Part shown: positions 3,378 to 64,000 of the stretch, in pieces
How the letters are laid out: each line of letters opens with the position of its first letter
Numbering within the stretch: the first letter of the stretch is position 1
IMG/VR virus record: IMGVR_UViG_3300020048_000032
Location: 83,147-147,146 of that record
From: a virus
Taxonomy: Duplodnaviria; Heunggongvirae; Uroviricota; Caudoviricetes
DNA: 64,000 nucleotides
Strand: one strand, 5' to 3'
Translations under genes and position numbers: made by a program
Notes under the pieces: model-generated
Database searches by the model: none
Told to the model about the DNA's origin: nothing
The model's input: only the letters and a program-made list of their open reading frames with translations

Positions 3378-3417
3378 GGCAGAGTGCTACAATTTTTAAG
3401 AAAGTAAACACTCTGCC
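3378..3417 (-). terminator. Hairpin GGCAGAGTG...CACTCTGCC, probable terminator of the late structural operon
   Basis: Perfect 9-bp inverted repeat about 70 nt downstream of the last baseplate gene, followed on the minus strand by AACTTAATTTTATTTT. Confidence 0.55.
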
Positions 3418-3486
3418 GTGAAAGGGATGATGCAATAAGGTTCGTAACTGCACTTAAGCAGGATTTATTGTCGTAGTATTTTAAGC

Positions 3487-4050: not shown

Positions 4051-4051
4051 T

Positions 4052-38621: not shown

Positions 38622-39824
38622 TTAACGTAATGCTTTACCTGAGTACTTAATCCGAACGTCTAAGGATTTCTTAGCCATTGATAACTCAAGCAAGAACTGA
38701 TATCCAATAAATTCTTCACGACCTTGATAGCCTTCGCTTTCCGAGAACACAAAGTCTTGACACCACGGTGCTTCTTTTACTTCTACTCCACCTTGTTGTA
38801 ATGAACCTTTTTTCTGTACTGCATCTATAACATCTTTCCTAGCATACACAGGTCCTCTGTTCTTAACATGCATTTCTTTTTCTATGAGTGCTCCGAGTTC
38901 TTTCATAGCCTGTTCTGGTGTTCGAGTATCTTTTGAACTGTGGTAAAACATTATAGTTTCTTCGCCCATGTCAGTTTGTTTATCTCTGCTCAATACATTT
39001 CCAGGGCTCTTTTGCTGAAACATTCCAGGTGCAGAGTCCTCAACAACTTTAATAATGTCTTCATGAACCCATTTTCTAATTGTTGCTCTCTTCAGTGCTT
39101 CCTGATTATCTGCTGCTTCGTTAACTACTTTTAATTCTTTAACAATATTTAAATTTAATTTGTTCATTTTACCTTTCACACTTTCATTCAAGTTAGCTAG
39201 AATCTCTTCTGCGGGTTCAACTTCCTCTGATTCCGAATAGCTGTCTGTAACGAATGGTCCAGCTTCATTCATATCTTCTAACTCATCTACAGGTTTATCT
39301 ATTGGTTCTTCTGATTCAATTGAACCACCTGTTGCATAACGTCCGATAGATTCTTTTACCACTTTAGGTTTTCTAACACGGAGAGATTCTAATACGATAT
39401 TTTCCCATTCGGTTCTAATCTCGTAGTCTGTGTCTCTAAGGTCTTGAATAAACTTATCGATATTACCGTTAGCCTTCAGGAAGGCGTATACAAGTACTTT
39501 AGTAGGAGTTTTCTCCATACGACCTTGTACACACATCGCAAGCCAATCGAAGACACGATAGCGGGCAACGGCGAGGTCAAACATAATCATTTGAGTTTCT
39601 GCGCCGAAGTATTCTGCCGTAGCGGCGATAGTTCTTATTTCATCGCGGGTAAGGTTGTTTGCTATTCCCTGGTGACGCGTATCGTTAGTCTTAAGAGACA
39701 TAACTCTCTTCCACGTATTCGCTTCACCTGGGGCTCCGGATGCCTCCGTGGCGTTTATCTTTTTAAGAGGAGTATCTACAATTAAACTCTCTAATAATAC
39801 TTTTTTATTTTTTAAATCATTCAT
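38622..39824 (-). CDS. Hypothetical protein, candidate internal head protein (leader MNDLKNKKVLLES)
   Basis: ORF track; repeated LLES/VLES/VKES/LNES/VNEA motifs. Confidence 0.7.
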   Translation of the reverse strand: MNDLKNKKVLLESLIVDTPLKKINATEASGAPGEANTWKRVMSLKTNDTRHQGIANNLTRDEIRTIAATAEYFGAETQMIMFDLAVARYRVFDWLAMCVQGRMEKTPTKVLVYAFLKANGNIDKFIQDLRDTDYEIRTEWENIVLESLRVRKPKVVKESIGRYATGGSIESEEPIDKPVDELEDMNEAGPFVTDSYSESEEVEPAEEILANLNESVKGKMNKLNLNIVKELKVVNEAADNQEALKRATIRKWVHEDIIKVVEDSAPGMFQQKSPGNVLSRDKQTDMGEETIMFYHSSKDTRTPEQAMKELGALIEKEMHVKNRGPVYARKDVIDAVQKKGSLQQGGVEVKEAPWCQDFVFSESEGYQGREEFIGYQFLLELSMAKKSLDVRIKYSGKALR

Positions 39825-40074
39825 ATTGGTCCTCCGGATATTCTAGTTCTATAATTTCTTTATTCGACCGTGCGTAAGCAAGTTCTGCAACTTCTTCAAA
39901 AGCGACATTGGATTTTGCGACTTCGTATAGAGCAAGTCGTTCGCCTATCTTAAACTTTTCTGTGCTAACAAAGTCGATAAATTCTGCCATTGCTTCCTCA
40001 TCATTTGTTGCGGCTATATTACGTACACCAACTTCTATTCCAAATATCTCCATTGAGATTTTATATTTTGCCAT
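39817..40074 (-). CDS. Hypothetical protein
   Basis: ORF track; GGAG RBS. Confidence 0.6.
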   Translation of the reverse strand: MAKYKISMEIFGIEVGVRNIAATNDEEAMAEFIDFVSTEKFKIGERLALYEVAKSNVAFEEVAELAYARSNKEIIELEYPEDQYE

Positions 40075-40075
40075 C

Positions 40076-40873
40076 TTAGTCTCCTATAGCCCGGCTGTAA
40101 CTGGTGTTAACCATTTCTAGAAGTTTTTCTATTTTAGCTTTGCCGGTGTCGATTAGTTCTGAAGAAGAAATCGACCAGTCGTAATTACTAACGGTATATT
40201 TACCGCGGGCTCTTCCGAGGGATATCATCGCTAATGCGATTGCATATTGTGTCAGGAAGTCATAAGCTTCAGGAACGTTCTTAACAATACCAACTTGGTC
40301 TGTTGTTAAAATAGGCACGTACTCAATAGTAACATTACTACTCGCAGGATACCCTACGTCCATTCTTAATTTCTTTCTAGCTTTATCATAATCGTATGTG
40401 CAAGCGTCTTTAAATCCACCTGATAGTCGAGACACTAAGATACGTTCGTTATACATCGTTGCGATGTTACTAATAGTATCTGTATAGTTATTCATGGATG
40501 AACGTCCTGAACGGATTGCCCAACCTAGCGGGATACCAGAAATATCTGATGTATTTGTTAAGACGTCATTACTGCCCCTAGATTTAATTACATCTAAAAT
40601 GTAGGAAATTTCTAAAGGGAACGTTGAGGTATCTATCTCTTTATAATAAGATAATTGTCCGTTAACATCCATTCTTACTATGGGAACATAATGCCATACT
40701 ACAAGTAAAGAATATTTTGCCATTATAATCAGTGCACGTTTAACTAATGACTCTATTACGGCGTCGGATAGCTCTACCTCTACGATAGGAGCACCGAGTT
40801 CGAAACGCACGGATTCTTTTATATAATCGAGAACTTCCTGATTATCTTCTGGCGTTACAACAATATCTAACAT
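40076..40873 (-). CDS. Neck protein (T4 gp13-like head-tail adaptor)
   Basis: YIKESVRFELGAPIVEVELSD...YAIALAMISLGRARGKY...SELIDTGKAKIEKL. Confidence 0.8.
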   Translation of the reverse strand: MLDIVVTPEDNQEVLDYIKESVRFELGAPIVEVELSDAVIESLVKRALIIMAKYSLLVVWHYVPIVRMDVNGQLSYYKEIDTSTFPLEISYILDVIKSRGSNDVLTNTSDISGIPLGWAIRSGRSSMNNYTDTISNIATMYNERILVSRLSGGFKDACTYDYDKARKKLRMDVGYPASSNVTIEYVPILTTDQVGIVKNVPEAYDFLTQYAIALAMISLGRARGKYTVSNYDWSISSSELIDTGKAKIEKLLEMVNTSYSRAIGD

Positions 40874-40890
40874 ATGTTCACCTCCTTAAC

Positions 40891-41298
40891 TTACTTAACT
40901 TCTTCAGAGCCAAACTTAACAACTTGAATACCTAGGCTACCTAAACTACGGTAGTACCCAACCCAACGAGTGAGTGAGCATTCTTCTGGTATAACTATTT
41001 CTAATGGAGTGTTAGGTTTGATTCTATACATTGTAACTTTGTCTTCATTCCAAACAAAGTCGTATCCGACAGGTGCACGCAGGTCTGCTAATGCAACCTT
41101 GCCTACTGTAAGGTATATTTTCTTTACCATTTTACGCTGTGGAACTACGATTATCTCTGGAGGTAACTCCTCGGTGACAACATGAATAGGGGTAGGCAAG
41201 GTCTCGATGACTGCTGCCTCAACTAATGATGCAACTTCATCTAATGCATCTATAACTTCTGATGGTATGTCTACTGCTACTTTTTTTGGTCTTCCCAT
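40891..41298 (-). CDS. Hypothetical protein
   Basis: ORF track; GGAGG RBS. Confidence 0.65.
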   Translation of the reverse strand: MGRPKKVAVDIPSEVIDALDEVASLVEAAVIETLPTPIHVVTEELPPEIIVVPQRKMVKKIYLTVGKVALADLRAPVGYDFVWNEDKVTMYRIKPNTPLEIVIPEECSLTRWVGYYRSLGSLGIQVVKFGSEEVK

Positions 41299-41309
41299 AG
41301 GAAACCTCC

Positions 41310-41804: not shown

Positions 41805-41815
41805 AGTGCCTCCGG

Positions 41816-43060
41816 TTAATCTAATAATACAGGGAAGTAATACCCATTTATTTCTTTCATTACTATTTGCTTCTTAACAAACATACTAAGTGCTCTGCAT
41901 TCAGCTTCACCCAGCTGTGTTGCTTGTCTTAACTCGTCTGCTACAATATAATCTATATATTTAGATGACATATTTGTAGAAAGCTTTATCCCTACTTCCT
42001 TAACTCTTGCAGGGCGTATGCTTAGGACTTTCTCTAATGTCGCAAACCACGACTCATCCTTCTCTGGGAATTGTGCATGTGCATATTCCATAACGAGTTT
42101 TAGGAATGTATTAACGATTGCTGCAAGTGTTCCATCTGGAGTGTACCCTAGTTTGTATTTATATTCTGGCGGCAGTACTGGATTCAATACTGCAGATAGA
42201 TTGCCGAAGCGTTCCAAGAATAGGTAATCGTAATCTGGGACTAAGTTATCACCCTCATCACGTAGCTCAATACTCGTAGGAGTAAAGTTTGCTTGATACT
42301 GTTCTTTAAAATTAGAACTGTACTGCGACTTAGCAGGATGTGTTGGGAAGAATACCCACAACGGACCCTTCTGATGATAGGAGTCGAAGTAACCCATATC
42401 AAGTCGTCTGGTACACCATGAACTTTTCTTACCGAAATAAGCGCCCGCAATCTTATCTAATTCTTCGATGATAATAACCTGGTCATTCTCAAATACTTTT
42501 CTATACTTACCTGCATCTTCATCTTCACCTGGGTCTGCCATTCCGAATTCATCCATTTTAAATACAAAGTTTTGTAAACCGTTTATTGTAGTACCCTGTT
42601 CATTGACAGTATCTTTGTACTTTAAAATGTCATTCCAAGGTGCTTTAATTTTATTCTTTTTCTTAAGCTGTTCGAACTTAGTTATAGCTGGCCGAACTTC
42701 ACTCATTAAGTCTTCTACCTTAGCGCCCCATCCGCCCTTAGCATAGTTCTGTGCAATGAATTGCACGTACGCATGGTTAGGTGTTGGGTCCACTTTTTCG
42801 AATACTTTAAACAACTCGAGTACCGCTTCTGTTTTTCTTTTTATTAATTCCGCCTCTTCTTCTTCTTTTGGCATTTTCTCATCAATGCGTGGTAAACTAC
42901 TAATCTTTTGCTTAATTGCGTATACCTCATTAGAGGTGTCCGCCCATAGAGCTGCAAACAATTTATTTAATCCGTAGTTCTTTATCGTTACTTCCGCATT
43001 ATATTCTAGTACGGCAATAGCTTTACTCTCGAGGATAGATTGTTTAATTATGTTCTTCAT
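41816..43060 (-). CDS. Family A (DPT...WCT, PcfJ-like tentative) domain protein with ILES leader
   Basis: DPTPNHAYVQFI...KKKNKIKAPWNDILKY...SSWCT; paralogous to 43755 and 60167. Confidence 0.75.
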   Translation of the reverse strand: MKNIIKQSILESKAIAVLEYNAEVTIKNYGLNKLFAALWADTSNEVYAIKQKISSLPRIDEKMPKEEEEAELIKRKTEAVLELFKVFEKVDPTPNHAYVQFIAQNYAKGGWGAKVEDLMSEVRPAITKFEQLKKKNKIKAPWNDILKYKDTVNEQGTTINGLQNFVFKMDEFGMADPGEDEDAGKYRKVFENDQVIIIEELDKIAGAYFGKKSSWCTRRLDMGYFDSYHQKGPLWVFFPTHPAKSQYSSNFKEQYQANFTPTSIELRDEGDNLVPDYDYLFLERFGNLSAVLNPVLPPEYKYKLGYTPDGTLAAIVNTFLKLVMEYAHAQFPEKDESWFATLEKVLSIRPARVKEVGIKLSTNMSSKYIDYIVADELRQATQLGEAECRALSMFVKKQIVMKEINGYYFPVLLD

Positions 43061-43758
43061 ACCTGTTCCTCCGGCTTCTCTAAGCCTACTGTATAACGGT
43101 CTACTTGTGCGTCTTGTAGGAATGCTCCTGTAAGGATAGCCCCGCGTAAGTTAGCACCACGTAAATCTGCATAGATTAAGTTTGCGTTTGTAAAGTCTAC
43201 ACCTCGCAGGTCTGCTTTTCTAAAGTTAGCGAACATTCCTGTTACACTTGACATATTAGAATTACGAAGCTTAGCTCCTGTTAAATCTACATTACTTATG
43301 TTTGTATTACTTAAGTCGATGCCATTTAAGTTAACTCCTGATAGATTTGCATCACTTATATTTGCGCCTTTTAAACTTGCTCCTGCAAGATTGGCATTGG
43401 AAAAATTACCTCCACCTAGGTTCGCTTTGTCTAATTTTGCGTTCTTTAAATTTGCATTTGTAAAGTCTGACCCAGTAAATTTTCCTCCAGATAAATCTGC
43501 ATATCTGAAGTCCGCTCCCACTAGGGTGCATGATACAAATGACGGGTTAACCCACTCAACACCTAAAAAACTAGCACCAGTCAGGTTTGCTTTATTAAAG
43601 GTAGCACCTGATATAGTGCACTTGTCAAAAGATGCACCTGAAAGGTCTGTGTTTGTTACTGCGATGCTGTTTAGCAATCTGTAACTAAAATCTGCAGGAG
43701 ATTGTGCGTTATGCGATTTTGCTATGTTATTGAATTCTGATATGTCTGTTTTTCTCAT
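43057..43758 (-). CDS. Pentapeptide-repeat protein
   Basis: Many A(D/N)LxG/A(N/D)F pentapeptides (ANLTGASF, ADFRYADLSG, ANLKNAKLDKANLGG, ADLRGANLRGAILTG). Confidence 0.92.
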   Translation of the reverse strand: MRKTDISEFNNIAKSHNAQSPADFSYRLLNSIAVTNTDLSGASFDKCTISGATFNKANLTGASFLGVEWVNPSFVSCTLVGADFRYADLSGGKFTGSDFTNANLKNAKLDKANLGGGNFSNANLAGASLKGANISDANLSGVNLNGIDLSNTNISNVDLTGAKLRNSNMSSVTGMFANFRKADLRGVDFTNANLIYADLRGANLRGAILTGAFLQDAQVDRYTVGLEKPEEQV

Positions 43759-44582
43759 GCTCCTCTTTCCTCTCGTGCTTGCCATGCCAGATAGTCTGGA
43801 TTGTCTTTAAAATACTTTTCTACTAAGTCCCCGAATCGTCTGGTTAGAACCCAGCCCGAACCTGACGGTGCATCATGGTCATCCATAAAGATACCGTTTA
43901 CAAAATGTATTGCATACTTTTCTTCAGGGTATTCTGGTTCTTTAGGTATAAGGAAGTAGAGCTTGCCTCTACCATTATATATGTCGAATTGATTTGCTGC
44001 TCTACCGGATACACACCATTTAGTGCCACGCCCGTAAGTGCATGATGCAGCTTCGTCTAGAGGTACTACGATGGTTACTTTATCATCTTCGTAAACTTTA
44101 TCTACTCTTCCTACCTCTGACTGTGAAGCAACTACTTCCCCAGTTGATTTCGTAAAGTCTATAAATTCTTGTAAAGATTGAAATTGATTCATATCGTTGA
44201 AAGGAGGTTTAATTTTATTTCTTTTCTTTAGGCTGTCGTAAGTTGTTAACAAATCCGTAAAGTCTTGATTAACATATGTGCCGAATTCTACACCACCTTT
44301 AGCATACATGCGTAACATAAAATTAACATATGTGTGTTGAGGTGTTGGGTCAATCTTCTTAAGTTCACCGGATAACTCGCTGTAGATACCGTTAAGTTGA
44401 TATCCTGAGAACCCTTGTTGTAATCCTTGTTCGATAAACCCCTTTGTTCGTGGGTCTATTGTTGCGTCGTCAAGCATTGCACGTACAACATCTTCTGATA
44501 GTCGCGCTTGCTGAGCTTCTGATAATGCTTCCTCTACTGCGACTGCTTTCATGTTTTCTAGTATACTTCTAATTTGACCCAT
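43755..44582 (-). CDS. Family A (DPT...WC) domain protein with ILEN/LSEA leader
   Basis: IDPTPQHTYVNF...YGRGTKWCVSG...EKYAIHF..FMDDHD. Confidence 0.75.
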   Translation of the reverse strand: MGQIRSILENMKAVAVEEALSEAQQARLSEDVVRAMLDDATIDPRTKGFIEQGLQQGFSGYQLNGIYSELSGELKKIDPTPQHTYVNFMLRMYAKGGVEFGTYVNQDFTDLLTTYDSLKKRNKIKPPFNDMNQFQSLQEFIDFTKSTGEVVASQSEVGRVDKVYEDDKVTIVVPLDEAASCTYGRGTKWCVSGRAANQFDIYNGRGKLYFLIPKEPEYPEEKYAIHFVNGIFMDDHDAPSGSGWVLTRRFGDLVEKYFKDNPDYLAWQAREERGA

Positions 44583-44583
44583 G

Positions 44584-45057
44584 TTAACCTCTTTCTATTC
44601 GCCAGCCCAGTGACCGTGCTTCCTGTATACGTTCTTGTTGATTTAATGTCGGGTCTGTTTTCGCGGGTATTAGTAATGCACCCGACGTGTGGAAAACAGC
44701 AACAAATATAATATTGTAATAAGTATTAATCTCGTCGATGAAAGCTGGGTGCATACGGTGCATATAGTCTGCTTTAGCATCTGGTCCGGCATACTCAGGT
44801 CTAACTAAGAAGTTAAGTATCTGATGATTTTTACGAGAAAGTCGTCGCTGTCCCTTCCCTTTGACAACCTCAGCACCAACTTCTACATACTCTGTGCCGA
44901 CAATTTTACCATCCGGGAAGATGAACATAGATGCTTCGGAGAGATTGTCTTGTTCGACATAACCATATGTATGGGTAAGCTTATGGAACAACTCTGCAGT
45001 TGCCCCGACGTCTAGGTCCTTTATAGACTCTAATATAGCCTTGGGTTGTTTATTCAT
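44584..45057 (-). CDS. Family B hypothetical protein with AILES leader
   Basis: ASMFIFPDGKIVG...YNIIFVAVFHTSG; clear paralog of 62873..63385. Confidence 0.75.
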   Translation of the reverse strand: MNKQPKAILESIKDLDVGATAELFHKLTHTYGYVEQDNLSEASMFIFPDGKIVGTEYVEVGAEVVKGKGQRRLSRKNHQILNFLVRPEYAGPDAKADYMHRMHPAFIDEINTYYNIIFVAVFHTSGALLIPAKTDPTLNQQERIQEARSLGWRIERG

Positions 45058-45058
45058 G

Positions 45059-45814
45059 TTATACTTCCTCTACTAACTTTGAAGCCTTCTTAGCTGCCAT
45101 GCCCGCTTTAGTCTTTGCGGAGATAACTGCTTTCTCTTCTGGTGTTAATGGACGGCGTGCTTTATATGGAACTGTGGTTCCTTTGTTCCATGCAGGTGTA
45201 CCCTTCTTGCTATCGGAAATTTTCTGCTTCTGTTCATCTGTCATAGCGATACCTTTGTTAGGTGCTACGCGGCCTTTGCGCGCTGCAGATAACTTGGCTA
45301 ATGTTTCAGGGGAGGTCGGCTGACCTTTATTCCATGGCGTAGTGCCCTTCTTGGCGGCGCTCATTTTAGCGCGTGTTTCATCCGTCGGATGAGTACCTAA
45401 ACGGGCAGCTGACATCTTAGCCCGTGACTCATCAGTATATGTTGGATATTGTCCTCCAAGCGTTAGATTATATCCATACACTGGGTTGCTTGACTGATAC
45501 TCAGCAATTAATTTTATTTCTAATGTACAAGCATCTTCTTTTGATAATCCGCTCGCAAGAGTTTCATGACGTATATTTTCCCAGCCATACTTTTCTATTG
45601 CTCGTAGCATTAGAGGTTGTGCCCATTTGTGATAATGATTACCGTTGTTACCATAGCGGTGTTCTACAAGTTCGTTACCAGTTATTCCAATGTACACCTT
45701 GCCATTTGGAAAGGTATGTTTGTAAACATGAAATGTCTTTATAGGTTTGCTAGGCAATTCTTCATTTTCAGAAGATTTATTAATGTTTTTAATTGTATCC
45801 TTGAAAATTGACAT
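45059..45814 (-). mobile_element. Free-standing GIY-YIG homing endonuclease with NUMOD3 repeats
   Basis: VYKHTFPNGKVYIGIT, EIKLIAEY, GYNLTLGG; repeats DESRAKMSAA / DETRAKMSAA / ETLAKLSAA. Confidence 0.88.
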
Positions 45815-45863
45815 ATTGCCTCCTGACTTCTTTACTTAATGTACTTATATAAGGGCACTAAGT

Positions 45864-45898
45864 AAAGAAGAGCATCCACTCCGTGGAATGAATGCTCT
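45864..45898 (-). terminator. Rho-independent terminator after the major capsid gene
   Basis: Minus strand AGAGCAT...CCAC GGA GTGG ATGCTCT followed by TCTTTACTT. Confidence 0.7.
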
Positions 45899-45918
45899 AA
45901 TATTAAATGATTAAACTA

Positions 45919-47337
45919 CTAGGAACCGGAAACGGTTACTGTACCTTTTGAGTACAATTTGCCGTTGATTAGCTTCTTAGCGTAGGCTGTAGCATAGCCC
46001 TGAGCAACATTGAAGTTCTCGTAAGCTAGCAAGTCGGTTGTCATGATAGGCATGTAAGGAGCATAAACCATTCCGGCGTGGAACATGGAATCGCCCTTAT
46101 AACCTAAAACGTAACCAGCGCGGTTAGACAATACTGGTGTCTTGAAGACTTGGTAATTGCCCATTGTGCCGATGAAATGAGGACCATTGCCAGTTTGACC
46201 TGAAGCAACGAAGCCACGGTTGGCCAAGGATTCAACTACTGTGGAAGCATCCAAACCGAGAACAGCCCAAGTCGCAGTACCGAAACGTGTTTCTTCAAAG
46301 ATGTTGTTTGAAGCTTCATTGAATTTAACAACGAAACCTTCAAAGTGGTCCAAGGTAGAAACAGCATTAGGAACTGTTTTATTGAATGTGGTCGAGGTAG
46401 CGGTAGCGCCCTTAAACATATCTTCAATTAATTCGCCGTCGATTTCGTACTGTAAGAAGTTAGCGATTAAGCCAGCTGTTTCAGTTTCTGAATCGTAGCC
46501 GTATTGAATTTGGAAGTCATACATAGCATCGAATGCCATGATGGTTTTTAGCTTACGGCTTTGGGCCATAACTGGAATAGCAGTGATTGTCAAATAAACT
46601 TCAGGCGCTTCAACTGGAACAGTTAAATTGTCTTGGGAATAGGCAGCCAATACTAATGTAGGGGTCTGAGCATCGTCAAAATGAACAACGCCTGTAGAGT
46701 AATTTACATCACCTTTTACAGCGTTAGCAGCATTCAACAAATCGCCTTCACCATTGTCGTGGAATAATACGCCGTCAACGTCGACAACGATTGAACCTGC
46801 AACAACTGGTTTCCAATCTAAAGTAATAGTTTGTGGACTGGAAGCGTAAACAGCGGTTTCATTTGTGATTGCACTAGAAGTGTAATCGAATGAACCAGCA
46901 GCGCCACCAATACGTTGGTAAGAACTGAATGCGGTACCGGCTTGGATAGCGCCTTTAGTATTACCATACTTAACATCTAAGTAACGGATTTCCCCGATAC
47001 GAGCCTGTAAAGGTTGTACGGATACTAAATCATGCGCGATGAAATTCGGAACAGCTGCGGTAAGAATATTAATACCGTGTTTACGAATGAATGATACGTC
47101 TTGAGGTTGGGTAGCTTCATTTGCACTACGACCACCAATCTTTGTTACTGCGTCATAAGCTTCCGTACGACGAGAGAATGTTTCGAGTACTTGACTTAAA
47201 GTCGTTGCTCTCCAATCATCCATTTTATCCAAACCAGCGCCAACGCGTGCGTTGTCAACTGCCTGAACATTCTTGCTCCAACGGTCTTTGACTGCTTTTG
47301 CTTGAAGCTGCATAGCTTCTAATGAACTTGTTGCCAT
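45919..47337 (-). CDS. gp23: Major capsid protein (T4 gp23-like)
   Basis: AAVPNFIAHDLVSVQPL, AQSRKLK, LQYEIDGELI, GMVYAPYMPI...ATAYAKK; probable maturation site SANE/AT. Confidence 0.95.
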   Translation of the reverse strand: MATSSLEAMQLQAKAVKDRWSKNVQAVDNARVGAGLDKMDDWRATTLSQVLETFSRRTEAYDAVTKIGGRSANEATQPQDVSFIRKHGINILTAAVPNFIAHDLVSVQPLQARIGEIRYLDVKYGNTKGAIQAGTAFSSYQRIGGAAGSFDYTSSAITNETAVYASSPQTITLDWKPVVAGSIVVDVDGVLFHDNGEGDLLNAANAVKGDVNYSTGVVHFDDAQTPTLVLAAYSQDNLTVPVEAPEVYLTITAIPVMAQSRKLKTIMAFDAMYDFQIQYGYDSETETAGLIANFLQYEIDGELIEDMFKGATATSTTFNKTVPNAVSTLDHFEGFVVKFNEASNNIFEETRFGTATWAVLGLDASTVVESLANRGFVASGQTGNGPHFIGTMGNYQVFKTPVLSNRAGYVLGYKGDSMFHAGMVYAPYMPIMTTDLLAYENFNVAQGYATAYAKKLINGKLYSKGTVTVSGS

Positions 47338-47359
47338 TAATTAATTTCCTCCATATGGT

Positions 47360-49765: not shown

Positions 49766-49782
49766 ATTCTACCTCCTTGTAT

Positions 49783-50061
49783 TTAATTACTCTTCTTTAT
49801 AATAATATGTAAGTCTTCTCCTCGATGGAAATATACATCGTAGGCAAAAATATCATTCTCTATAAAGTCTTCTTTTATTTCGTTATCACCAAAAGTATTA
49901 CATATTTCTTTTAAATGAGAATATACTTCTTCAAACGAAGGATGTGTTACTTCTTCGATAACTTCATCTTCGCCTTCATAATCTGCCTGGTACAACGTAC
50001 CAGACCATGAGGATGAGGGCTGTGCCATAGCTTCTGTTATACTTCTAATTAAACTTTTCAT
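49783..50061 (-). CDS. Small acidic protein with SITEA leader
   Basis: ORF track; AAAGGAG RBS. Confidence 0.65.
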   Translation of the reverse strand: MKSLIRSITEAMAQPSSSWSGTLYQADYEGEDEVIEEVTHPSFEEVYSHLKEICNTFGDNEIKEDFIENDIFAYDVYFHRGEDLHIIIKKSN

Positions 50062-52604
50062 AGTTCTCCTTTTATGTAGGACACTATTGTGTCCGCTGCT
50101 TTCTGTGCAGCCTGACCTCTTAGTGGATAGAGCGTGCGTACTATTTTATTCCGCATGTCTTGCCAGTCTGTTGGGTCCTTAAGCATTTTTAATATTGTCT
50201 TATATAAGTCCTTAGGGTCGTCGACTTGTGGTCCCGGGATATAATCCCAGAAGCGTATCCCAAGTCGCATTCCTTTACGGTACCACGGTGCGTTCAGTAC
50301 AATGACTGGACGGCCTGTGGCGGCAAATTCATAGATGGTAGAGCTGTTGTCGCAAATATATACATCTGCTTGCTCGAAGACATCTTTTAAATTCTTTACT
50401 CGTGTTATTTTATATTTTGCACAGACTTCATCCCAGTGTTTATCTTCTCTAGGGTGTCCGTGAAATATCAAATTAAAATCATCGCTTGCTGCAAGTGTAT
50501 GCAATATAGACTCGTAATGCGGAAATGCACTTCTAGTTTCAGGTGCTACTTCACAATTCCAATGGAAGGACAGACAAACTGTCTTCTTGTCTTTCTTCAT
50601 AGGAATATTTGGTTCTACATTATCTAACTTAGGTGTGCCTACAATAACTTGTTTAGCTTTAGGATATGTCGCAGCGTTCTTATTCTGAATCATTTGATGT
50701 GGATTTAAGAATAGCACTACACGGTCTTTTCCTGGACCACCTGCATAATAAGGATTGTCGTTACCATACGTATTGCCTATCCCGTGGTCCATCCAAATAA
50801 CTGGGCCTACCGTTTGCATGTAATCATCATACGCTGCAACCAAGGTTAACCCAGGTCGTGGCATCGTGTGTACAACCGGTATATGAGCTGCTTTAGCTCG
50901 CTCTGCGCAATCTGGATTGATATAGAATATTCCACGATACTCCTCAGGCAATGCTTGCCATACTGGAATCATGTGGTCTATATACTGTACTGCTTGCGCA
51001 TAAAAGTTTACTTTTTGAAAGTGTGTTTGTTCTGCTGAGATGATATCCTCCCAAAGTTTTACACTTGCTGCATTCTTACTATCATCGTAATATACTGCAT
51101 GTGTTCTTTTTACTGGGATGAACTCATCTATCCATTGGTCAAAGCCTTCTATGAACTGGTCTTGTGCAGTTTCATAGTGACTAAAGATAACTGGTGTACC
51201 TAGTATATGTGCTTCCTCGGTCGCTAAGCCGTAGAGCTCATGGTCCGAGAAACTGCATAAATAATCCGCTGCCTTAATACAGGGGAAAGGATTCTCTTTC
51301 TCTCCTATGAAGGTCACACGGTCACCCAGTGCTGCAGATACTTCATCTTGAAGGTGTTTGTCTGCTGTATTGAATGGACTGCCTACGATAACTAGTTTGT
51401 TCTTTAAGTTATATTCTCTAGACATAAATTCAATTGCTTTGTCAAAACCTTTTTCAATTGAGATTCTACATACCATCAAATAGGTAATGTTGTTATCTTC
51501 AACAACATTAAAGCGTTCACATGGTTCAGTTGCAAGTGCATTTATCGCATTTATATCAACAGCATTTGTTATTATTGTAGAATTTAATCCAACATCCATT
51601 AATTTATCCTTATGCCATTTACTTTGTGCGATAATAACATTGTTTGCATTGAATAGGTTTGCAATTTCTATTGGTATATTTGAATAGAGTGCGTGGATAG
51701 TTTTATTTGCTTTAACGAAAGACAAGTTAAGTTTTGTATATGTACAATTGATTAATGCATCACAGACAAATATCTTAGACTGATTATCCTTAACAAGTTC
51801 TACATCGCATAACTTTCTATACTTGTCCATCATCTTCTTAGATGATTTAATATTATCCTCATATAATAATTTAATATCGTACTTGCCTGTTCTAAGTAAG
51901 AACCATATAATATTATAGACAACAGTTTCCATACCGCCCATAACAAATCGTGGGCTGTAGAAGATAAGTTTAACTAACTTCTGTTCCTTTGCCGTAAATC
52001 CTGCCGTAGCTCTTTCGGTTAAACTTCCCGGTCGGTCATTACGGTAGAGATATATTGTAGGGGTGATATATCCTATAATATGTTTATCTGTTATGTTATC
52101 CTCTATAAATTGTTTATCCTCTGCCCAAGACTTATCTTCGTTGAAGGTATGCTTGATGATACTTCGTTTCCATATCCTACACCACACTGCCGTATTCCAT
52201 GCAGGTAGATTGTCTGACTTGTATTCGAAGTGATTTGCACACGTCGTCTTCCAACTGATTAGGAAGATGTCATTCTTTCTAGGCAGGTTATTTAATATAA
52301 CTTTAATGTAGTCTGTAGTAACTTCATCATCACCGTCGATGAAGGCAACGTAGTTACCTGTCGCTAATGCTAGTCCAGCATTTCTGGAATAGCTTACACC
52401 TTTGTTAATGTCGTTTACAACTACCTTACATTTCTTATTGTGAACAAACATACATTGATTTATTTTATCTACTGTTCTATCTGTAGAGTAATCGTCTATA
52501 ATAATCAATTCACATTTACTTGTAAGCTGCGGAAGAATAGAACACAGACAACGACTAATATAATTCTCGAGATTATACGAAGTAACTATAATACTCAAGT
52601 CCAT
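50058..52604 (-). CDS. Three-domain glycosyltransferase: GT2 (GT-A) + GT4-like (GT-B) + CDP-glycerol glycerophosphotransferase-like domain
   Basis: SIIVTSYN...IIIDDYSTD...SRNAGL...AFIDGDD; CRISIEKG...VIVG...FIGEKENPF...ELYGLATEEAHILGTPVI; FHGHP...ADVYICDNSSTIYEFAATGRPVI. Confidence 0.88.
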   Translation of the reverse strand: MDLSIIVTSYNLENYISRCLCSILPQLTSKCELIIIDDYSTDRTVDKINQCMFVHNKKCKVVVNDINKGVSYSRNAGLALATGNYVAFIDGDDEVTTDYIKVILNNLPRKNDIFLISWKTTCANHFEYKSDNLPAWNTAVWCRIWKRSIIKHTFNEDKSWAEDKQFIEDNITDKHIIGYITPTIYLYRNDRPGSLTERATAGFTAKEQKLVKLIFYSPRFVMGGMETVVYNIIWFLLRTGKYDIKLLYEDNIKSSKKMMDKYRKLCDVELVKDNQSKIFVCDALINCTYTKLNLSFVKANKTIHALYSNIPIEIANLFNANNVIIAQSKWHKDKLMDVGLNSTIITNAVDINAINALATEPCERFNVVEDNNITYLMVCRISIEKGFDKAIEFMSREYNLKNKLVIVGSPFNTADKHLQDEVSAALGDRVTFIGEKENPFPCIKAADYLCSFSDHELYGLATEEAHILGTPVIFSHYETAQDQFIEGFDQWIDEFIPVKRTHAVYYDDSKNAASVKLWEDIISAEQTHFQKVNFYAQAVQYIDHMIPVWQALPEEYRGIFYINPDCAERAKAAHIPVVHTMPRPGLTLVAAYDDYMQTVGPVIWMDHGIGNTYGNDNPYYAGGPGKDRVVLFLNPHQMIQNKNAATYPKAKQVIVGTPKLDNVEPNIPMKKDKKTVCLSFHWNCEVAPETRSAFPHYESILHTLAASDDFNLIFHGHPREDKHWDEVCAKYKITRVKNLKDVFEQADVYICDNSSTIYEFAATGRPVIVLNAPWYRKGMRLGIRFWDYIPGPQVDDPKDLYKTILKMLKDPTDWQDMRNKIVRTLYPLRGQAAQKAADTIVSYIKGEL

Positions 52605-52616
52605 GTTCTACCTCCT

Positions 52617-53504
52617 TTAATAATTATTTATAAAATTAATTAACTCTTGTGCTAGTTTACTAGGTAATCCTAACACTTGAACTTCTTGAATCTCTTCTAT
52701 AATATCTTCTTTTTGACCTACTGAAGCTCCACGAGAACTTAATGCTTTCTCTTTATCCTCTGTAGAATCCATAATAACAAACTTCCAAAGATTTGCCGTG
52801 TACTTATTAACAAGGTAAGTCTCATTATCGTATTCAACACTATGTTCTACTAGAGGAGCAGATTGACTTCCACCTGTTATAACTAATTGATTCCTATTAT
52901 TAGTAGATATGAATTGTGCAACACGGAGTTCACCCCTTAGTTCTGGGAATTTTTGTTCTGCTTCGCGAAGGTATATTTTTGCACTAGACTCAAAGTCAAA
53001 TTCATAGAAAGGGTCAGGGGCATATATGGTCCCATTCATCATTACTACATACCATGAGCCTATAGTTAAATCTGAGTTGTCTATATCCTCAGTAACCATT
53101 CTATCTCTTGCGTCATTACCAAAGTCGAATGGCGTTGGGTCGCTAGCATGAATGAATCCTACGAAGCGATTTGTTATCTCTTCGTCTAATGCATCGGTGC
53201 GCTCTAGTTCGGTAAGCTGTCGAAGTATTTCATCCCATATCTCACCACGTGTTGACCAACCACTTGTTTCGCTATCTTCATCGAAGACGGCTAAGCTCCA
53301 GTCATTGTCACCATGCTTAAAGATACTATAGTATGTACCAGTAGCTGTATCTTGCAATACATAAAGAGGTTCATCCATCACAGGACCCTCAGGGTCCTCG
53401 TAGTATACATGAAGTGTCCGTGGGTCTATCTCTTGAATAGCTTCCTTGATTGCAATCGGTTTAGCACTTAAGTTCTCTAAAATTAATTTACTTTGTTTTT
53501 GCAT
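52617..53504 (-). CDS. Acidic hypothetical protein with LILEN/IKEA leader
   Basis: ORF track 52617..53558; ATG at 53504 (MQKQSKLILENLS) follows GGAG. Confidence 0.7.
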   Translation of the reverse strand: MQKQSKLILENLSAKPIAIKEAIQEIDPRTLHVYYEDPEGPVMDEPLYVLQDTATGTYYSIFKHGDNDWSLAVFDEDSETSGWSTRGEIWDEILRQLTELERTDALDEEITNRFVGFIHASDPTPFDFGNDARDRMVTEDIDNSDLTIGSWYVVMMNGTIYAPDPFYEFDFESSAKIYLREAEQKFPELRGELRVAQFISTNNRNQLVITGGSQSAPLVEHSVEYDNETYLVNKYTANLWKFVIMDSTEDKEKALSSRGASVGQKEDIIEEIQEVQVLGLPSKLAQELINFINNY

Positions 53505-55029
53505 TTGTATCACACTCCGCAAGAACTTTGAAGATATCAAATGGGAATAGTTCTCCAACTACTTCTTGGCTAATATACCACTGAGGTACCTCACCATCCC
53601 AAGTATCGCCTACAACGTCTGAACCATGTTCACGTAAATTTACGATGTGTTGTTTCAAATTTGCTAACGCGGATTCTAAGTTAAAGGTTTCTTCATCCCA
53701 GATATTGTTTGTTAAATAAGTGTCTGGGTTAGGTAATATCTCTTCTTCATACCAGTCTGCTAGTTTATCTGCGGGCCCAGCATGATATTCATGCGTCATG
53801 TAATGGTCGTAAATAAACATATTGTCTGAATCGTTTGCTTTGTATAAGTCGGCCTCCGGACAATTCCAAGCCTTCACGAAGAAAGCATTTAGTTCCTCTT
53901 GTGGCATAGCATTTATTTGTTCTACAGACGCGTACTCATCTTCCTCAGAATCTAGCATGTCTACTGCTTCTGTCGCAGGCTGAAAGCCCTCTCCGTTTTC
54001 TCTAAGCCACTCTTCTATTTCCACGTCGTTCATACCACCTGATTTAAGAATAGATGTAATCTGTTCTATCATCTGTGCATGTTCTTGTGCGCTTGATTCA
54101 TCGGAATCATCTTGAGCTGTATCGTTACCTGAGTAGGTAGTTATGTAGTAATCGTCGATGGTCTCTTCATCTGCAAGCTCATCGATTAATTGATTTGCTT
54201 GTAAGTGTTCTAAGAAGTCTGGCATATAGTTAGCTCTAACGTATTCAACGAGTGCTATATGTCTGTTGTACTCTTCCTTCGGCCCAGCAGCATCTTCTGG
54301 GTCGAACGCAGGGAACTCCCCATCCATGTTGCTGTCTGCTTGGTTATCTTCTAGTTCACGTTCTGTTTCGTGTTCTGGGTTAGGAAGTTTTCTAATTGGG
54401 AAATCTCTATATTCATTTACACTTTCACTTGCTGTAAATGTATCTATAACTTCACCGCTATCTTCGTAGTTGATGTCGTCCTTGTCCAATCTAATTTCAT
54501 GGTATTGAGATGTCCCGTCTATGATTTCTCTACGCAACACTTCAAAACGTGCGCGAGCTTCCTCTAAGGTTTCAAAGTCTTCCCATAAAGTATCAGCATC
54601 ATCTGTAATTGTATAGATGATATTCATTGGCTCTGCGGGTTGTTCATCTTCATTTTCAAACCCGGATGAAAGTCCTTCGTTAACAGCACTGCCCATTTTA
54701 GTAAAAGCTTCTTGCAGTGCTTCGTAATCTTCCTGTAAACTTTCTTCTAGGCTAGCCAACTTCTGTCGCATAGACGCTTCGAGTTCTTCATCGGACTCTT
54801 GCTGCGGTTCTTGCTCTGGCATTTCTGGCTCTGGGATATCTACTGTCTCAGCAACATCCTCTTCAAAGTCTGGCATATCATCTTCACGGACATCCGGTAC
54901 CATTAATTCAAATTTAAAATTAGAAGCACTTTCAGCACCATCTAAGTTCTGTTTTAGGGCAGCAGGTATCCATTGTTTTGGGTGACCGTCTTCCACCTCC
55001 AGCAAAAACGAAACTGTGTATTTTTTCAT
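53488..55029 (-). CDS. Highly acidic hypothetical protein
   Basis: ORF track; very E/D-rich; internal LEES/LQEA/VNEG/ATEA/LESA motifs. Confidence 0.75.
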   Translation of the reverse strand: MKKYTVSFLLEVEDGHPKQWIPAALKQNLDGAESASNFKFELMVPDVREDDMPDFEEDVAETVDIPEPEMPEQEPQQESDEELEASMRQKLASLEESLQEDYEALQEAFTKMGSAVNEGLSSGFENEDEQPAEPMNIIYTITDDADTLWEDFETLEEARARFEVLRREIIDGTSQYHEIRLDKDDINYEDSGEVIDTFTASESVNEYRDFPIRKLPNPEHETERELEDNQADSNMDGEFPAFDPEDAAGPKEEYNRHIALVEYVRANYMPDFLEHLQANQLIDELADEETIDDYYITTYSGNDTAQDDSDESSAQEHAQMIEQITSILKSGGMNDVEIEEWLRENGEGFQPATEAVDMLDSEEDEYASVEQINAMPQEELNAFFVKAWNCPEADLYKANDSDNMFIYDHYMTHEYHAGPADKLADWYEEEILPNPDTYLTNNIWDEETFNLESALANLKQHIVNLREHGSDVVGDTWDGEVPQWYISQEVVGELFPFDIFKVLAECDTNAKTK

Positions 55030-55030
55030 A

Positions 55031-57053: not shown

Positions 57054-57061
57054 AGCCCCTC

Positions 57062-59175: not shown

Positions 59176-59232
59176 ATGTACCTCCTGATTTCTACAACAT
59201 ATAAGCACATTATTCTGTTAGTTGTATTCTAT

Positions 59233-60153: not shown

Positions 60154-60166
60154 ACTGCCTCCTTGT

Positions 60167-62743
60167 TTAAATTACTCTTGCTATATATTCGTTTGTGCTA
60201 GACTTATAATCTATTGTTATATAGTCTTTAATCCAGTCGCAGAATTCCGCATCTAAATGTTGATAATCCATTCTCATATATCTTGGCGCATATACTTCCC
60301 GTATGATGTCAGCTATAATCCATTCGAGTACATCGACATTATCATTAGTATCTAATGAATAATAATAGGGTTCTACAATCTGTTGTCTAAGGTCTACTGC
60401 TTTAATAGAGTCTATTGTATACGCCATCTCGTGATAGTGCTCTTCATCCTCTGGATTCCATTGTACTTCACCCTCTTCATTTATATCATCACTACTATAG
60501 TTATCTGCATTATATATGAGGTCTTTGTAGTGGTCTAGAGCTAACATACATACTTGAGCAGACACGCTCTCTAGCAATTCATCTGATGCAAACAGGATGG
60601 ACTTCTTTAGGTCAGGGTACTGCTTGAGTATATACGCTTTCAACCCGTGAGGGAACCGTGTATTAAGTAACCAGTACAAATCTATTGGGTCATCATGTTC
60701 ATTCATGAAGTCACCTTCTGCGAAATGCAATTGGTACTTCTCTCCTACGTGTTCAGGTTGCTTAGGCAATAAGATAAGTAGGTTACCTTTGTTGTTATAG
60801 CTGTCGAAGTAATTATTACCTCGTGTTGCAGCTGTACACCATTCTGTATTCTGTCCGTAGTATATCGCTGCAGCTTTGTCCTTAGGAACAATCATTCTAA
60901 CATCTTCATCCGCATAAGGTTCTACTGACGACCCTTTGTCTATTGTCTCTGCTTTCTTTATAGGCTCAGGTAGATTGCTAGCAAACGTTGCAAATGCTTC
61001 AAAGTCTTCAAATCGTAGGATATCGTTGTAAGGTGAAGGTACCTTGTTCTGCTTCTTAAGCAGGTCGTATTTAACGACGTAACCTTGTATCGTACTAGAG
61101 ATATCCTCTAAGTTTGCGCCCCAAGTTCCTTTGACATAGTTCTTTATATAGAATTGCATGTACTCTTTATTCTTCGTTGGGTCGTATACTTCCATTATAT
61201 TTAGGACGTCATTGACGAGGCTTCTTCTAGTTTTCTCATCTACTTCTTTAAATGGCAAGTAGTCATGCCCCATCTTTATTAAGTCTAGTATCTCACTTTG
61301 GTCTCTCCACATCCTTTCATATATCTTCTCACCGTATAACCGATAGGTCGTGTCTACGTTGTATGCCTCGAAGGCAGGACTAAGTGATTCAACTACAGTT
61401 GACTTGCCTGTATCACTATACACTCTAACCTGCCATTTACCACTGAGGTTTTTAACTTCTATAGATTCCTTCACCCAGTCACTGAGTTCAAAGTCCTCAC
61501 CGTTAAATTTAATAAGTAAGACATCTTCTAGTATGAAGGGTAAATTACTTAATTCACTGTTAAAATCTAATCCATTGTTGTCATAGTACCCGTAGTCTAA
61601 AGTAACAAAATCTCTAATAGACTCAGCAGTCTGATTTAATTGAGTATTTAATTCTGTCTCAAACTCTGACGCCTCATAAGAATAATCTGTATATCTGAGG
61701 CCAGTGGTATCATTTACTAGATATTTATCAGAGTCTGTATATATTGCATGACCCTGAACAATAAACCCTTGTTCCTCAAGCCACAGGCGGTATCCGTAGT
61801 CATTATCTTCAATCTCATTAAATACTTCTGTAAGATGTTCGCGAACTGCTTTACCCATACGTTGCCATAAACTCTCTAACAATTCATCTGGCGCAAATAG
61901 CACCCAGTTCTTAAGGTCTACATTGAATGCATCTGTCAAATCACCGAAGCGTTTTTTAACAATAACCTCTACTCTGACAGCATCATCTTTTTCATCCATA
62001 AATGAATTGCTGTCGAAGTGTAATTGATACTTCTCGCCTGGATGTTTAGGGTGCTTGGGTATTAAGATATACAAGTCGCCGTCTTGGTTATAGTCGTCGA
62101 AGTAGTTCTTACCCTCAGTAGCTGCTGTACACCAGCGAGTACCTTGTCCATAATAGATAGCTGCTTCCTCGTCGTCTGGTCTAACAATACGCACTTCACT
62201 GTTGCTAAAGATTTCCGTTGACTTACCTTTAGATTTAGCGTCGTCAGGTACCCCTAGTGGACTAACATATTCTACAAAGTCCTTGAACCCTCTAAACTTT
62301 AGTATATCGTTATAAGGTGCAGGTATCTTATTCTTTCTTTTTAGTGTATCATACTTTATTAAGGCAGGAACAACTTTGCTTCTTATATCTTCAAATGCTG
62401 TACCCCATCCACCTGCTGCATAATTCTTTATAATAAATGTAGCGTAAGTTTTATTAGGCGTAGGGTCCATCTTTGCAAGTTCATCTATAGTCCACTTGGT
62501 AATTTCATCTTTGTGGTCCTTTGGGTCGAAGTCTATTCCGGACTTCTGCCAGCCTGACCACCATCGCCAAGCATTTATAGCACCAGCACGAAATATCTTA
62601 TCACCATATAGTCGGTAAGATACTTCTGGATTGTATGCCTCAACGACAGAAGCCAGGCTCTCGGTTACGATATCCTGGTCTTGTTTAATAATGAATTTTT
62701 TATTATAGTGCCTTACGACAGGTTTCTTATTCTTAGTTTGCAT
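60167..62743 (-). CDS. Protein with two tandem family A (DPT...WCTA...YQLHF) domains
   Basis: Internal duplication, both halves starting ES..EAYN..YRLYG.KI; start at 62743 after GAGGAG. Confidence 0.82.
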   Translation of the reverse strand: MQTKNKKPVVRHYNKKFIIKQDQDIVTESLASVVEAYNPEVSYRLYGDKIFRAGAINAWRWWSGWQKSGIDFDPKDHKDEITKWTIDELAKMDPTPNKTYATFIIKNYAAGGWGTAFEDIRSKVVPALIKYDTLKRKNKIPAPYNDILKFRGFKDFVEYVSPLGVPDDAKSKGKSTEIFSNSEVRIVRPDDEEAAIYYGQGTRWCTAATEGKNYFDDYNQDGDLYILIPKHPKHPGEKYQLHFDSNSFMDEKDDAVRVEVIVKKRFGDLTDAFNVDLKNWVLFAPDELLESLWQRMGKAVREHLTEVFNEIEDNDYGYRLWLEEQGFIVQGHAIYTDSDKYLVNDTTGLRYTDYSYEASEFETELNTQLNQTAESIRDFVTLDYGYYDNNGLDFNSELSNLPFILEDVLLIKFNGEDFELSDWVKESIEVKNLSGKWQVRVYSDTGKSTVVESLSPAFEAYNVDTTYRLYGEKIYERMWRDQSEILDLIKMGHDYLPFKEVDEKTRRSLVNDVLNIMEVYDPTKNKEYMQFYIKNYVKGTWGANLEDISSTIQGYVVKYDLLKKQNKVPSPYNDILRFEDFEAFATFASNLPEPIKKAETIDKGSSVEPYADEDVRMIVPKDKAAAIYYGQNTEWCTAATRGNNYFDSYNNKGNLLILLPKQPEHVGEKYQLHFAEGDFMNEHDDPIDLYWLLNTRFPHGLKAYILKQYPDLKKSILFASDELLESVSAQVCMLALDHYKDLIYNADNYSSDDINEEGEVQWNPEDEEHYHEMAYTIDSIKAVDLRQQIVEPYYYSLDTNDNVDVLEWIIADIIREVYAPRYMRMDYQHLDAEFCDWIKDYITIDYKSSTNEYIARVI

Positions 62744-62751
62744 ATGTCTCC

Positions 62752-62886
62752 TCAATTCGTAAGTTTTACGAGTTTATTCTGCATATCTTTAGTTACCGAA
62801 TCCACTACCGTAAGTAAGATTAATTCTTCTTCCATATCCTCTAATCCAACTAAGATTAAGAATATCTCTTCGTCACGCAACCTCAT
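62752..62886 (-). CDS. Small 44-aa hypothetical protein (MRLRDEEIFLILVGLEDMEEE...)
   Basis: Manual translation; fills the 120-nt gap; GAGG upstream; stop abuts the RBS of the next gene. Confidence 0.45.
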   Translation of the reverse strand: MRLRDEEIFLILVGLEDMEEELILLTVVDSVTKDMQNKLVKLTN

Positions 62887-63385
62887 GAGATTCATCCTCA
62901 AGTATCATATCGTAAATTCGTGGATAACCTTCTATCTTGAATCCTGCTTTATGAAAGTCCTTTAGCCGTTCTATCTGCTGCGGCGTTGGTTCAACTCGTG
63001 AAGGCACAACTACGACACCATCTGTATGGAATTCAGCGACTACAATTAAATTATATATCTCTGCTAGTTCCTTATCCATTACAGGATGCTGGTCGTAGTG
63101 GCCGTTACTTTTGCGTTTAGTTATATCTATACCATAACTAAATACTCCGCGGTCATATATCTCTTGGTGAAATATATCCCTACCAAGCCCGTAATTGTCC
63201 TGCATCGCACTATCTGTTGCGCCTAGTATTCTACCATCGGGAAAGATAAACATTGCACTGGCGTCAGGTGTGGCCTTCTCTTCGAATGCATACTGCTCAC
63301 TATGTGTTAGCGAACTAAATAGATTGTTCGCTGCATCGATGTCTAAGTTCTTAAGTGATTCTATTATCGCCTTAGTCTGCTTCAT
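62873..63385 (-). CDS. Family B hypothetical protein with AIIES leader
   Basis: MKQTKAIIESLKNLD...ASAMFIFPDGRILG...YNLIVVAEFHTDG; paralog of 44584..45057. Confidence 0.75.
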   Translation of the reverse strand: MKQTKAIIESLKNLDIDAANNLFSSLTHSEQYAFEEKATPDASAMFIFPDGRILGATDSAMQDNYGLGRDIFHQEIYDRGVFSYGIDITKRKSNGHYDQHPVMDKELAEIYNLIVVAEFHTDGVVVVPSRVEPTPQQIERLKDFHKAGFKIEGYPRIYDMILEDESHEVA

Positions 63386-63386
63386 G

Positions 63387-64000
63387 TTACTTACCCATAA
63401 CAAACTTTGCTAAGCTCTTCAGTTGGTCCATAGAGATAATGTCCTTCTTACGGTACTCGTCTAGCTTCCCAAGCAACTCACCTTTATTATACATATCTGA
63501 TTCGCGTGCAGTGCCACCGTAGTAATAAGTTAAGGTATAAGTAGGCGTCTTCGCAAATTCTGAGAAGTCTACTATCAAGACCGCATAGCTACTTATTGTA
63601 GGGTCTTGAACAAACATGTGTGGGAATCCTATATCTGCAACATTATTAGAAGATACAATAAATTTATCTATGGATGACACTTTAACTACACTGCCAAGTT
63701 CATCCTTCCTCTTCATAACTATCTCGTGTGCATTAAACTTATTGGTTAAAGTGCTGATGATATTACGGAGAACAGTATTTATATTTTGCTGCATAGACGT
63801 GATTGCTTCTCGTTTGATTCTTTGTAATGCGATGTCGGATGATTTCTGTATTGCACCCGCTGCACGGCCTATTTCATTTGTATAACTCTTATAGTCTTCT
63901 ATAGAGGGCATCTCATCGCCATACATTTCACCTTCATTATCTTTATGCTTTTCTAATAGAGTTTTAAAGTCTATCTGTAGTAGAGATTCCAGCGGTAGGT
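63387..64000 (-). CDS. Family C paralog 5, 5' end beyond the window
   Basis: Frame is open from 63926 to the window edge (LPLESLLQIDFKTLLEKHK...); C-terminal VLIVDFSEFAKTPTY...LAKFV. Confidence 0.75.
   Translation of the reverse strand, partial: LPLESLLQIDFKTLLEKHKDNEGEMYGDEMPSIEDYKSYTNEIGRAAGAIQKSSDIALQRIKREAITSMQQNINTVLRNIISTLTNKFNAHEIVMKRKDELGSVVKVSSIDKFIVSSNNVADIGFPHMFVQDPTISSYAVLIVDFSEFAKTPTYTLTYYYGGTARESDMYNKGELLGKLDEYRKKDIISMDQLKSLAKFVMGK

Follow-up and report, generated by a model that had tools for sequence, protein, structure and literature searches.

Proteins that a phage injects along with its DNA are at work before expression of the phage genes begins, and those of T4 include inhibitors of restriction enzymes. 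Such proteins are hard to find because the tag that loads them is the only sequence they share. For T4 this tag, the capsid-targeting sequence (CTS), was reportedly described by Mullaney and Black in 1996. Here we examine a short N-terminal leader in an uncultured tailed phage (Caudoviricetes; IMG/VR record IMGVR_UViG_3300020048_000032) with a genome of about 148 kb, a gp23-family capsid protein and an S77 head protease. Our window is a 64,000-nucleotide stretch of this DNA, bases 83147-147146 of a single contig of 148,196 bp, and nearly all of its genes lie on the minus strand. We find the leader on 23 of the 33 genes in a block of about 31 kb around the capsid gene, where it probably serves as a T4-type leader for both capsid targeting and processing.

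In T4, propeptides of 10-19 residues direct internal proteins to the core, and gp21 removes them (PMC9026906, PMC5694885). The CTS is found on IPI, IPII, IPIII, Alt, gp24, gp67 and gp68, where it is cut by gp21 (PMC9026906, PMC3012670), and targeting and processing determinants are separable inside the leader (PMC9026906). The first ten residues of IPIII suffice for packaging foreign proteins (PMC9026906, PMC5694885, PMC3012670, PMC12373910). At least 10 internal proteins (Ips) have been reported from T-even phages (PMC12373910); these proteins are diverse, with the signal alone in common, and Ip1-3 inhibit GmrSD-type restriction enzymes (PMC9026906, PMC5694885, PMC3012670, PMC12373910). Read from the T4 genome (NC_000866), with a slash marking the cleavage-type bond after Glu, the leaders are MKTYQEFIAE/A for ipII and ipIII, ...STITE/A for ipI, MELITE/L for alt, MAKINELLRE/S for gp24, MEGLIE/A for gp67, ...LVLE/N for gp68, ...LLIE/T for gp21 and ...LIAE/A for gp22.

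The leader of the present phage follows the consensus M-[KN]-x(3-9)-[ILV]-[LITN]-E-[SNAT]-[ILMV], with the Glu (P1) at residues 6-14 and once at residue 28; the count of 23 among 33 block genes refers to starts of the form M-x(4-12)-[ILV]-[LITN]-E-[SANT]. Conservation is strongest at P3-P2-P1-P1'-P2'. The residues before the cleavage-type site are also non-random, being rich in Lys, Asn and Gln and holding a fixed spacing from Met1. Start codons were chosen by a motif-blind rule that combines ribosome-binding-site score and codon preference, and this rule picks the ATG that gives the leader. A Shine-Dalgarno-like site, usually a strong one, precedes most leader ATGs; it is weak for the gene at 52617 and missing from the gene at 62873, whose start abuts the upstream stop. 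Together the 23 genes span 18.8 kb, about 13% of all coding sequence in the genome, and their mature products would add up to about 750 kDa if each were present once. By blastp, 14 of them fall into three paralog families, A (seven members, including a gene at the contig junction), B (four) and C (three), with no similarity between families; the others are singletons. The original prediction, made from the sequence alone, had quoted 14 N-termini, all of which are present in minus-strand open reading frames at the low coordinates it gave. Its array of at least 13 leader genes proved to be an underestimate, and its families A, B and C and its tandem GNAT protein (Pfam) are real.

The array does not stop with the window. 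It extends past the window's end to the end of the contig and restarts at contig 262-4582, and joining the contig ends yields an intact, in-frame family A gene of 349 residues, colinear with its paralogs. Because this gene reads intact across the joined ends, the contig acts as a circle and the leader block is continuous. Contig positions 1-620 and 147164-147783 are 77.6% identical, a diverged tandem duplication in which the similarity begins exactly at base 1. The contig is thus probably circular or permuted, with its break at the duplication boundary.

The leader is common to otherwise unrelated proteins beyond what chance would give, as judged from sequence statistics. The original prediction had proposed comparing these N-termini with those of the remaining genes. 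We did so with a position matrix anchored on the Glu, in which each gene was scored with its own family left out, and with Fisher tests. Scores of at least 10 were reached by 12 of 33 genes in the block and by none of the 190 outside (P = 1.5 × 10−11), and the 12 best-scoring N-termini genome-wide all lie inside the block. At a score of at least 5 the counts were 17 of 33 versus 5 of 190 (P = 1.7 × 10−12), and with one gene per paralog family they were 10 of 22 versus 5 of 190 (P = 3.6 × 10−8). The codons behind the motif vary: the conserved Glu is encoded 12 times by GAA and 8 times by GAG, the P2 Leu by TTA, CTA, CTT, TTG and CTC, and the P1' Ser by TCN and AGT. Selection therefore acts on the peptide and not on a nucleotide signal.

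The leader had also been described as absent from the N-termini of fibre, baseplate and lysis proteins. This holds for tail, baseplate and lysis genes generally, and fails in two weak cases: a 491-residue gene in the fibre region (29135-30610, minus strand) that starts MRTIAE/SI and scores 9.4, and 35053-35406, which starts MIDKIIE/T. An 840-residue gene after the neck genes (35504-38026, minus strand) carries ..NSASLE/SAPVLE/R near residue 33, and its homologue in the metagenomic relative L003 reads ..TQSILE/NL. The genes at 29135-30610 and 35504-38026, both beyond the main block, possibly encode additional substrates of the protease.

The head proteins themselves carry the same type of site. 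Residues ~1-185 of the 801-residue protease protein match Pfam Peptidase_S77 (PF03420; 31.6 bits, cutoff 27) and a PHROG head maturation protease (9e-40). The sequence GELSHPPRA, which includes the catalytic-His motif (GELSHP), has a weak alignment with T4 gp21 in structure 5JBL (E 0.65), and GISSRG is present. The remainder of the protein is a long, acidic, coiled-looking extension. This scaffold part (residues 186-801, 616 residues) holds 10 [LIVT]E[SN] sites, a density 5.5 times that of the remaining proteome (P = 2 × 10−5), and the original prediction had noted the motif's recurrence in the scaffold; the enrichment fits a scaffold that would be cut to pieces. In the capsid protein, the predicted SANE-A motif is present as RSANE/A, with Glu74 just ahead of the Gp23 domain. 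At this x-E-[A/S]-TQP site (around residue 74), Glu is followed by Ala or Ser in 17 of 17 homologues, down to 34% identity, and we infer that Glu74 is where the propeptide is cleaved during maturation. In addition, 16 of the 17 homologues start leader-like, as M-x(n)-[ILVAN]-x-E (for example MATSSLE/A, MPNALNYKKILE/S and MNKKAHSILE/G). Because a leader-type tag stands at the capsid protein's own N-terminus, these sequences suggest that shell and cargo share one docking signal.

Relatives of this phage keep the leader and replace the cargo. Among phages in culture, the nearest are Listeria phage LIS04 and the Bacillus phages vB_BceM-HSE3 and SP-15 (Thornevirus), with 37-39% identity in the capsid protein and 44-47% in the protease domain; at the nucleotide level, megablast with the head region matched no cultured phage, and an IMG/VR search from a single protease sequence gave no confirmed relatives. 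The analysis identified 261 capsid homologues. The metagenomic contigs L003 and L004 (capsid 74% identical) and L009 (83% over the part retrieved) have many leader genes beside protease and capsid, with starts such as MNKHKAILE/A, MKSLKPLLE/T, MSSIKSILE/A and MNNKQILKELKKINE/S, and include a 2899-residue protein starting MLPASNDKLNGALE/A. The cargo that they have in common with the present phage is limited to families B and C and one singleton, and the remainder differs. Family C forms four tandem leader genes in L003, and the family B domain stands behind a leader in L004 and L009 as well. In the more distant L007 (39%) and L008 (34%), the region from portal to protease contains about 4-6 leader genes, and in LIS04 and HSE3 there are no more than one or two leader-like genes (in LIS04, MSRTRSDILE/A and ..GGLNE/S). 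From this pattern, the leader tag appears to be old and widespread in this head lineage, and the large array a lineage-specific expansion with rapid cargo turnover. We found no published description of such a leader array in this lineage.

The cargo offers few recognizable domains. Within the block, Pfam and PHROG searches recognized a tandem GNAT, a pentapeptide repeat (behind a doubtful leader) and DUF5661, and almost nothing else; among the leader-tagged proteins, only the GNAT protein has a recognizable enzymatic domain. In other systems the pentapeptide-repeat fold acts as a DNA mimic. No anti-defence function of the leader cargo was substantiated by Pfam, PHROG or structure searches. The mature forms are mostly acidic (isoelectric point, pI, 4.1-6.5), with four basic ones, and many leader proteins hold further cleavage-type sites downstream. 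A profile search with family A found 13 proteins among 1.84 billion representatives, 6 of them from this phage; the members from elsewhere also start with a short leader, followed by E/A-x-N-P-x-N-K-x-I-N.

Structure comparisons gave no firm assignment. Searching the Protein Data Bank (PDB) by Foldseek with an AlphaFold 2 (AF2) model of family A (predicted local distance difference test, pLDDT, 70) returned nothing at E ≤ 0.001. VIA-align matched residues 175-315 of family A to a pilin-like helix-plus-sheet arrangement (best Z 8.2); since this Z lies in the range of common arrangements, we infer no function from it. The ESM Atlas gave only weak leads for families A, B and C (0.88 for Prok-JAB in family B, a likeness to repeat proteins in family C). 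Among the leader genes near the contig start is a 169-residue orphan (contig 4073-4582, minus strand; MNQIKSILE/N) with the segments GHCTEVANAF ... PHAWV ... YDPSG. These resemble the Cys-His-Asp core of papain- or transglutaminase-like cysteine proteases, a tentative lead: there was only a weak USP8 match (E 0.04), the single-sequence model (pLDDT 51) was unusable and a homologue search found none.

Among described systems, the T4 CTS is the closest in design. Both are short N-terminal peptides (6-19 residues in T4) with [ILV] at P3, Glu at P1 and a small P1' residue, carried by otherwise unrelated proteins; both accompany a gp23-family capsid and an S77 protease, and the same site occurs in capsid propeptide and scaffold. 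The two differ in number, with about 7 non-shell tagged proteins in T4 and about 23 tagged genes in this 148-kb genome, and in cargo, which is small and basic in T4 and here mostly acidic and up to 858 residues long. Here, moreover, the protease is fused to the scaffold, and the lineage is nearest Listeria and Bacillus phages, not the T-even phages. The fusion is shared with LIS04, HSE3 and SP-15, whose head modules are compact and lack the array. The polymorphic ip loci of T-even phages (PMC12373910, PMC4437046) are likewise hot spots of non-homologous genes that share the leader alone and turn over fast between close relatives, whereas here the genes flank protease and capsid, include expanded tandem paralog families and take up about 19 kb of coding sequence in all, and no GmrSD-like target is known. 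In phiKZ-like giant phages (phiKZ, 201phi2-1, SPN3US; PMC5694885, PMC10052503), a gp21-related protease also processes many head proteins after Glu, with paralog families and a large packaged protein mass. Their propeptides, however, mostly exceed 100 residues and end in A/S/G-x-E, as against 6-14 residues with [ILV] at P3 in this 148-kb genome, and the phiKZ-type S80 protease profile (gp175 family, PF20034) scores 21.8, under its cutoff of 23.4, while S77 passes. The locus had been put forward as a candidate new system. That label does not stand, as the mechanism is that of the T4 CTS, enlarged in scale and set in a different lineage (PMC9026906, PMC5694885, PMC12373910). The T4 loading-and-cutting mechanism is already known; new here are the scale (23 genes), the size and acidity of the cargo, the protease-scaffold fusion, the leader on the capsid protein itself and the lineage.

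Translated to this phage, the T4 scheme would run as follows. During head assembly, the amphipathic leader (6-14 residues, once 28) would bring tagged proteins onto a core of protease-fused scaffold, around which the capsid shell would close. The S77 protease would then cut after the Glu of [ILV]-x-E, taking the leaders off, trimming the capsid propeptide at Glu74 and chopping the scaffold at its L/T-E-S sites, so that about 23 mature proteins would remain in the head with the DNA. Encapsidation, cleavage, retention in the virion and ejection into the host are thus predicted steps, and by analogy with T4, injection before gene expression and roles in anti-defence or host takeover are plausible.

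Several points weigh against equating this leader with the CTS of T4. The matrix built from this phage scores the T4 leaders poorly, because the upstream residues are lineage-specific; we therefore claim likeness for the architecture and for P3, P1 and P1' only, not for the upstream residues. The mature cargo is mostly acidic, whereas T4 internal proteins are called basic (PMC9026906), and some of it is large (830 residues). Several leader starts require that an internal ATG be preferred over an upstream TTG or GTG. The sharing of the leader is also partly due to common descent, as 14 of the 23 genes come from three paralog families. Finally, the support comes from sequence analysis of an uncultured phage.

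The alternative that survives best is that targeting and cutting take place as proposed, and that the tagged proteins are mostly assembly or core parts rather than injected effectors: an inner body or accessory scaffold, degraded or retained, comparable to T4 gp67 and gp68 or to the paralogous inner-body proteins of phiKZ-like phages. Families of seven, four and three are reminiscent of giant phages, whose head proteins include paralogs (PMC5694885), capsid and scaffold use the same site, further cleavage-type sites recur downstream of the leader in many of the proteins, and enzymatic or known anti-defence domains are almost absent from the cargo. Yet the cargo turns over fast between relatives whose capsids are 74% identical, which is unusual for structural parts and typical of accessory genes; a GNAT enzyme bears the leader; and LIS04 and HSE3 build the same head type with one or two such genes at most. 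We consider this account unlikely for the set as a whole, while for some of its members a structural function in an inner body stays a serious alternative.

Much less probable is that the leader is a removable propeptide without an addressing function, one that, for example, keeps proteins inactive until head maturation while packaging proceeds through other parts of the proteins. In favour of it, conservation peaks at P3-P2', which is the cleavage-type site, and the two determinants are separable in T4 (PMC9026906). The unrelated cargo proteins share the leader alone, however, so no other common packaging determinant is visible, and the residues upstream of the site are non-random too, at fixed spacing from Met1. 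That the similarity is functionless, a product of paralogy (14 of 23 genes) and of the Lys/Asn-rich starts of AT-rich phage genes (MK and MN starts are common genome-wide) or of a nucleotide signal at gene starts, is scarcely credible and is largely refuted by the synonymous codon variation and by the leave-family-out and one-per-family tests, with the motif nearly absent from the 190 outside genes and the same Glu site conserved in distant relatives' capsids.

Features of the leader array and the genes within it. Coordinates are those of the window unless marked contig; the slash marks the cleavage-type bond.
Feature	Position	Strand	N-terminus or match
Leader gene, 400 aa	38622..39824	-	MNDLKNKKVLLE/S; no Pfam or PHROG match
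Leader gene, 164 aa	41310..41804	-	MKNKINMIRQTALE/S; further ITE/A and VTE/S sites
Leader gene, family C, 414 aa	41816..43060	-	MKNIIKQSILE/S
Pentapeptide-repeat protein within array	43057..43785	-	Pfam Pentapeptide 4e-46; doubtful leader MRKTDISE/F, from internal ATG
Leader gene, family C, 275 aa	43755..44582	-	MGQIRSILE/N; matrix score 21.6
Leader gene, family B, 157 aa	44584..45057	-	MNKQPKAILE/S
GIY-YIG/HNH-type homing endonuclease, directly after capsid gene	45059-45814	-	without leader
Major capsid protein, gp23 family, 472 aa, N-terminal propeptide	45919..47337	-	Pfam Gp23 (PF07068) 162.7 bits
Prohead protease fused to scaffold-like C-terminal part, 801 aa	47360..49765	-	Peptidase_S77
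Leader gene, 92 aa, directly upstream of protease	49783..50061	-	MKSLIRSITE/A
GT2 + GT4 + TagF-like glycerophosphotransferase fusion, 848 aa, two genes upstream of protease	50058-52604	-	without leader
Leader gene, 295 aa, acidic	52617..53504	-	MQKQSKLILE/N
Possible leader gene, 513 aa, very acidic (pI 4.1)	53488..55029	-	MKKYTVSFLLE/V; weak match, P1' = Val
Leader gene, family A, 329 aa	55031..56020	-	MLRDNKLFSVTE/T
Leader gene, family A, 348 aa	56007..57053	-	MKNSVIEKLISQNE/A; AF2 model pLDDT 70
Leader gene, family A, 309 aa	57062..57991	-	MRIINE/V, short leader
Leader gene, family A, 395 aa	57988..59175	-	MKTIKSIIE/N; matrix score 22.6
Leader gene, tandem GNAT acetyltransferase, 306 aa	59233..60153	-	MNTTRQIIRNLE/S; Pfam Acetyltransf_1 1.2e-10, two stretches
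Leader gene, family C, 858 aa	60167..62743	-	longer leader, ends DIVTE/S at residue 28
Leader gene, family B, 170 aa	62873..63385	-	MKQTKAIIE/S; matrix score 19.2
Family A leader gene, C-terminal part	63387..64000	-	N-terminus MNKIVNRLLE/A beyond window, genome 147441
Six more leader genes	contig 262-4582		MNDKIKILLE/A, MVKQSRLILE/N, MKQNKTVLE/S, MIKYKSILE/S, MNIYKKIIKAITE/S, MNQIKSILE/N

Some further observations concern the surroundings of the array. Immediately upstream of it, a 301-residue gene (contig 6033-6938, minus strand) matches Pfam Gad1 (Gabija anti-defence 1; E 1.1e-7, 32.1 bits, cutoff 27); this gene has no leader. The portal and large terminase genes (contig 44547-46796 and 50599-52719) lie about 75 kb away from the capsid and protease genes; in the cultured relatives, the terminase, portal, protease-scaffold and capsid genes are adjacent in a compact module. 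In L009 an endonuclease-bearing insert splits the capsid gene in two (3429-5631), and in SP-15 the capsid match is in two pieces flanking a 'putative endonuclease', so the capsid gene seems to have been invaded repeatedly. Public sequencing runs that contain this DNA are labelled as aquatic or marine metagenomes.

Judging by these comparisons, loading of the T4 type probably operates well beyond the T-even phages, in a lineage with its nearest cultured relatives among phages of Bacillota. The roughly 23 tagged candidates, nearly all without a known domain, form a concrete list for anti-defence and host-takeover screens. A broader reading, which we hold only tentatively, is that the leader acts as a portable address for the head throughout a wide clade of uncultured phages with gp23/S77 heads, capsid protein included. 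In the present lineage it would mark more than 20 fast-evolving proteins, enzymes among them, and these would form a hypervariable arsenal of effectors delivered before gene expression starts. If this is true, the injected effectors of uncultured phages would be predictable from sequence alone, and foreign proteins could be loaded into such phages by means of the tag.

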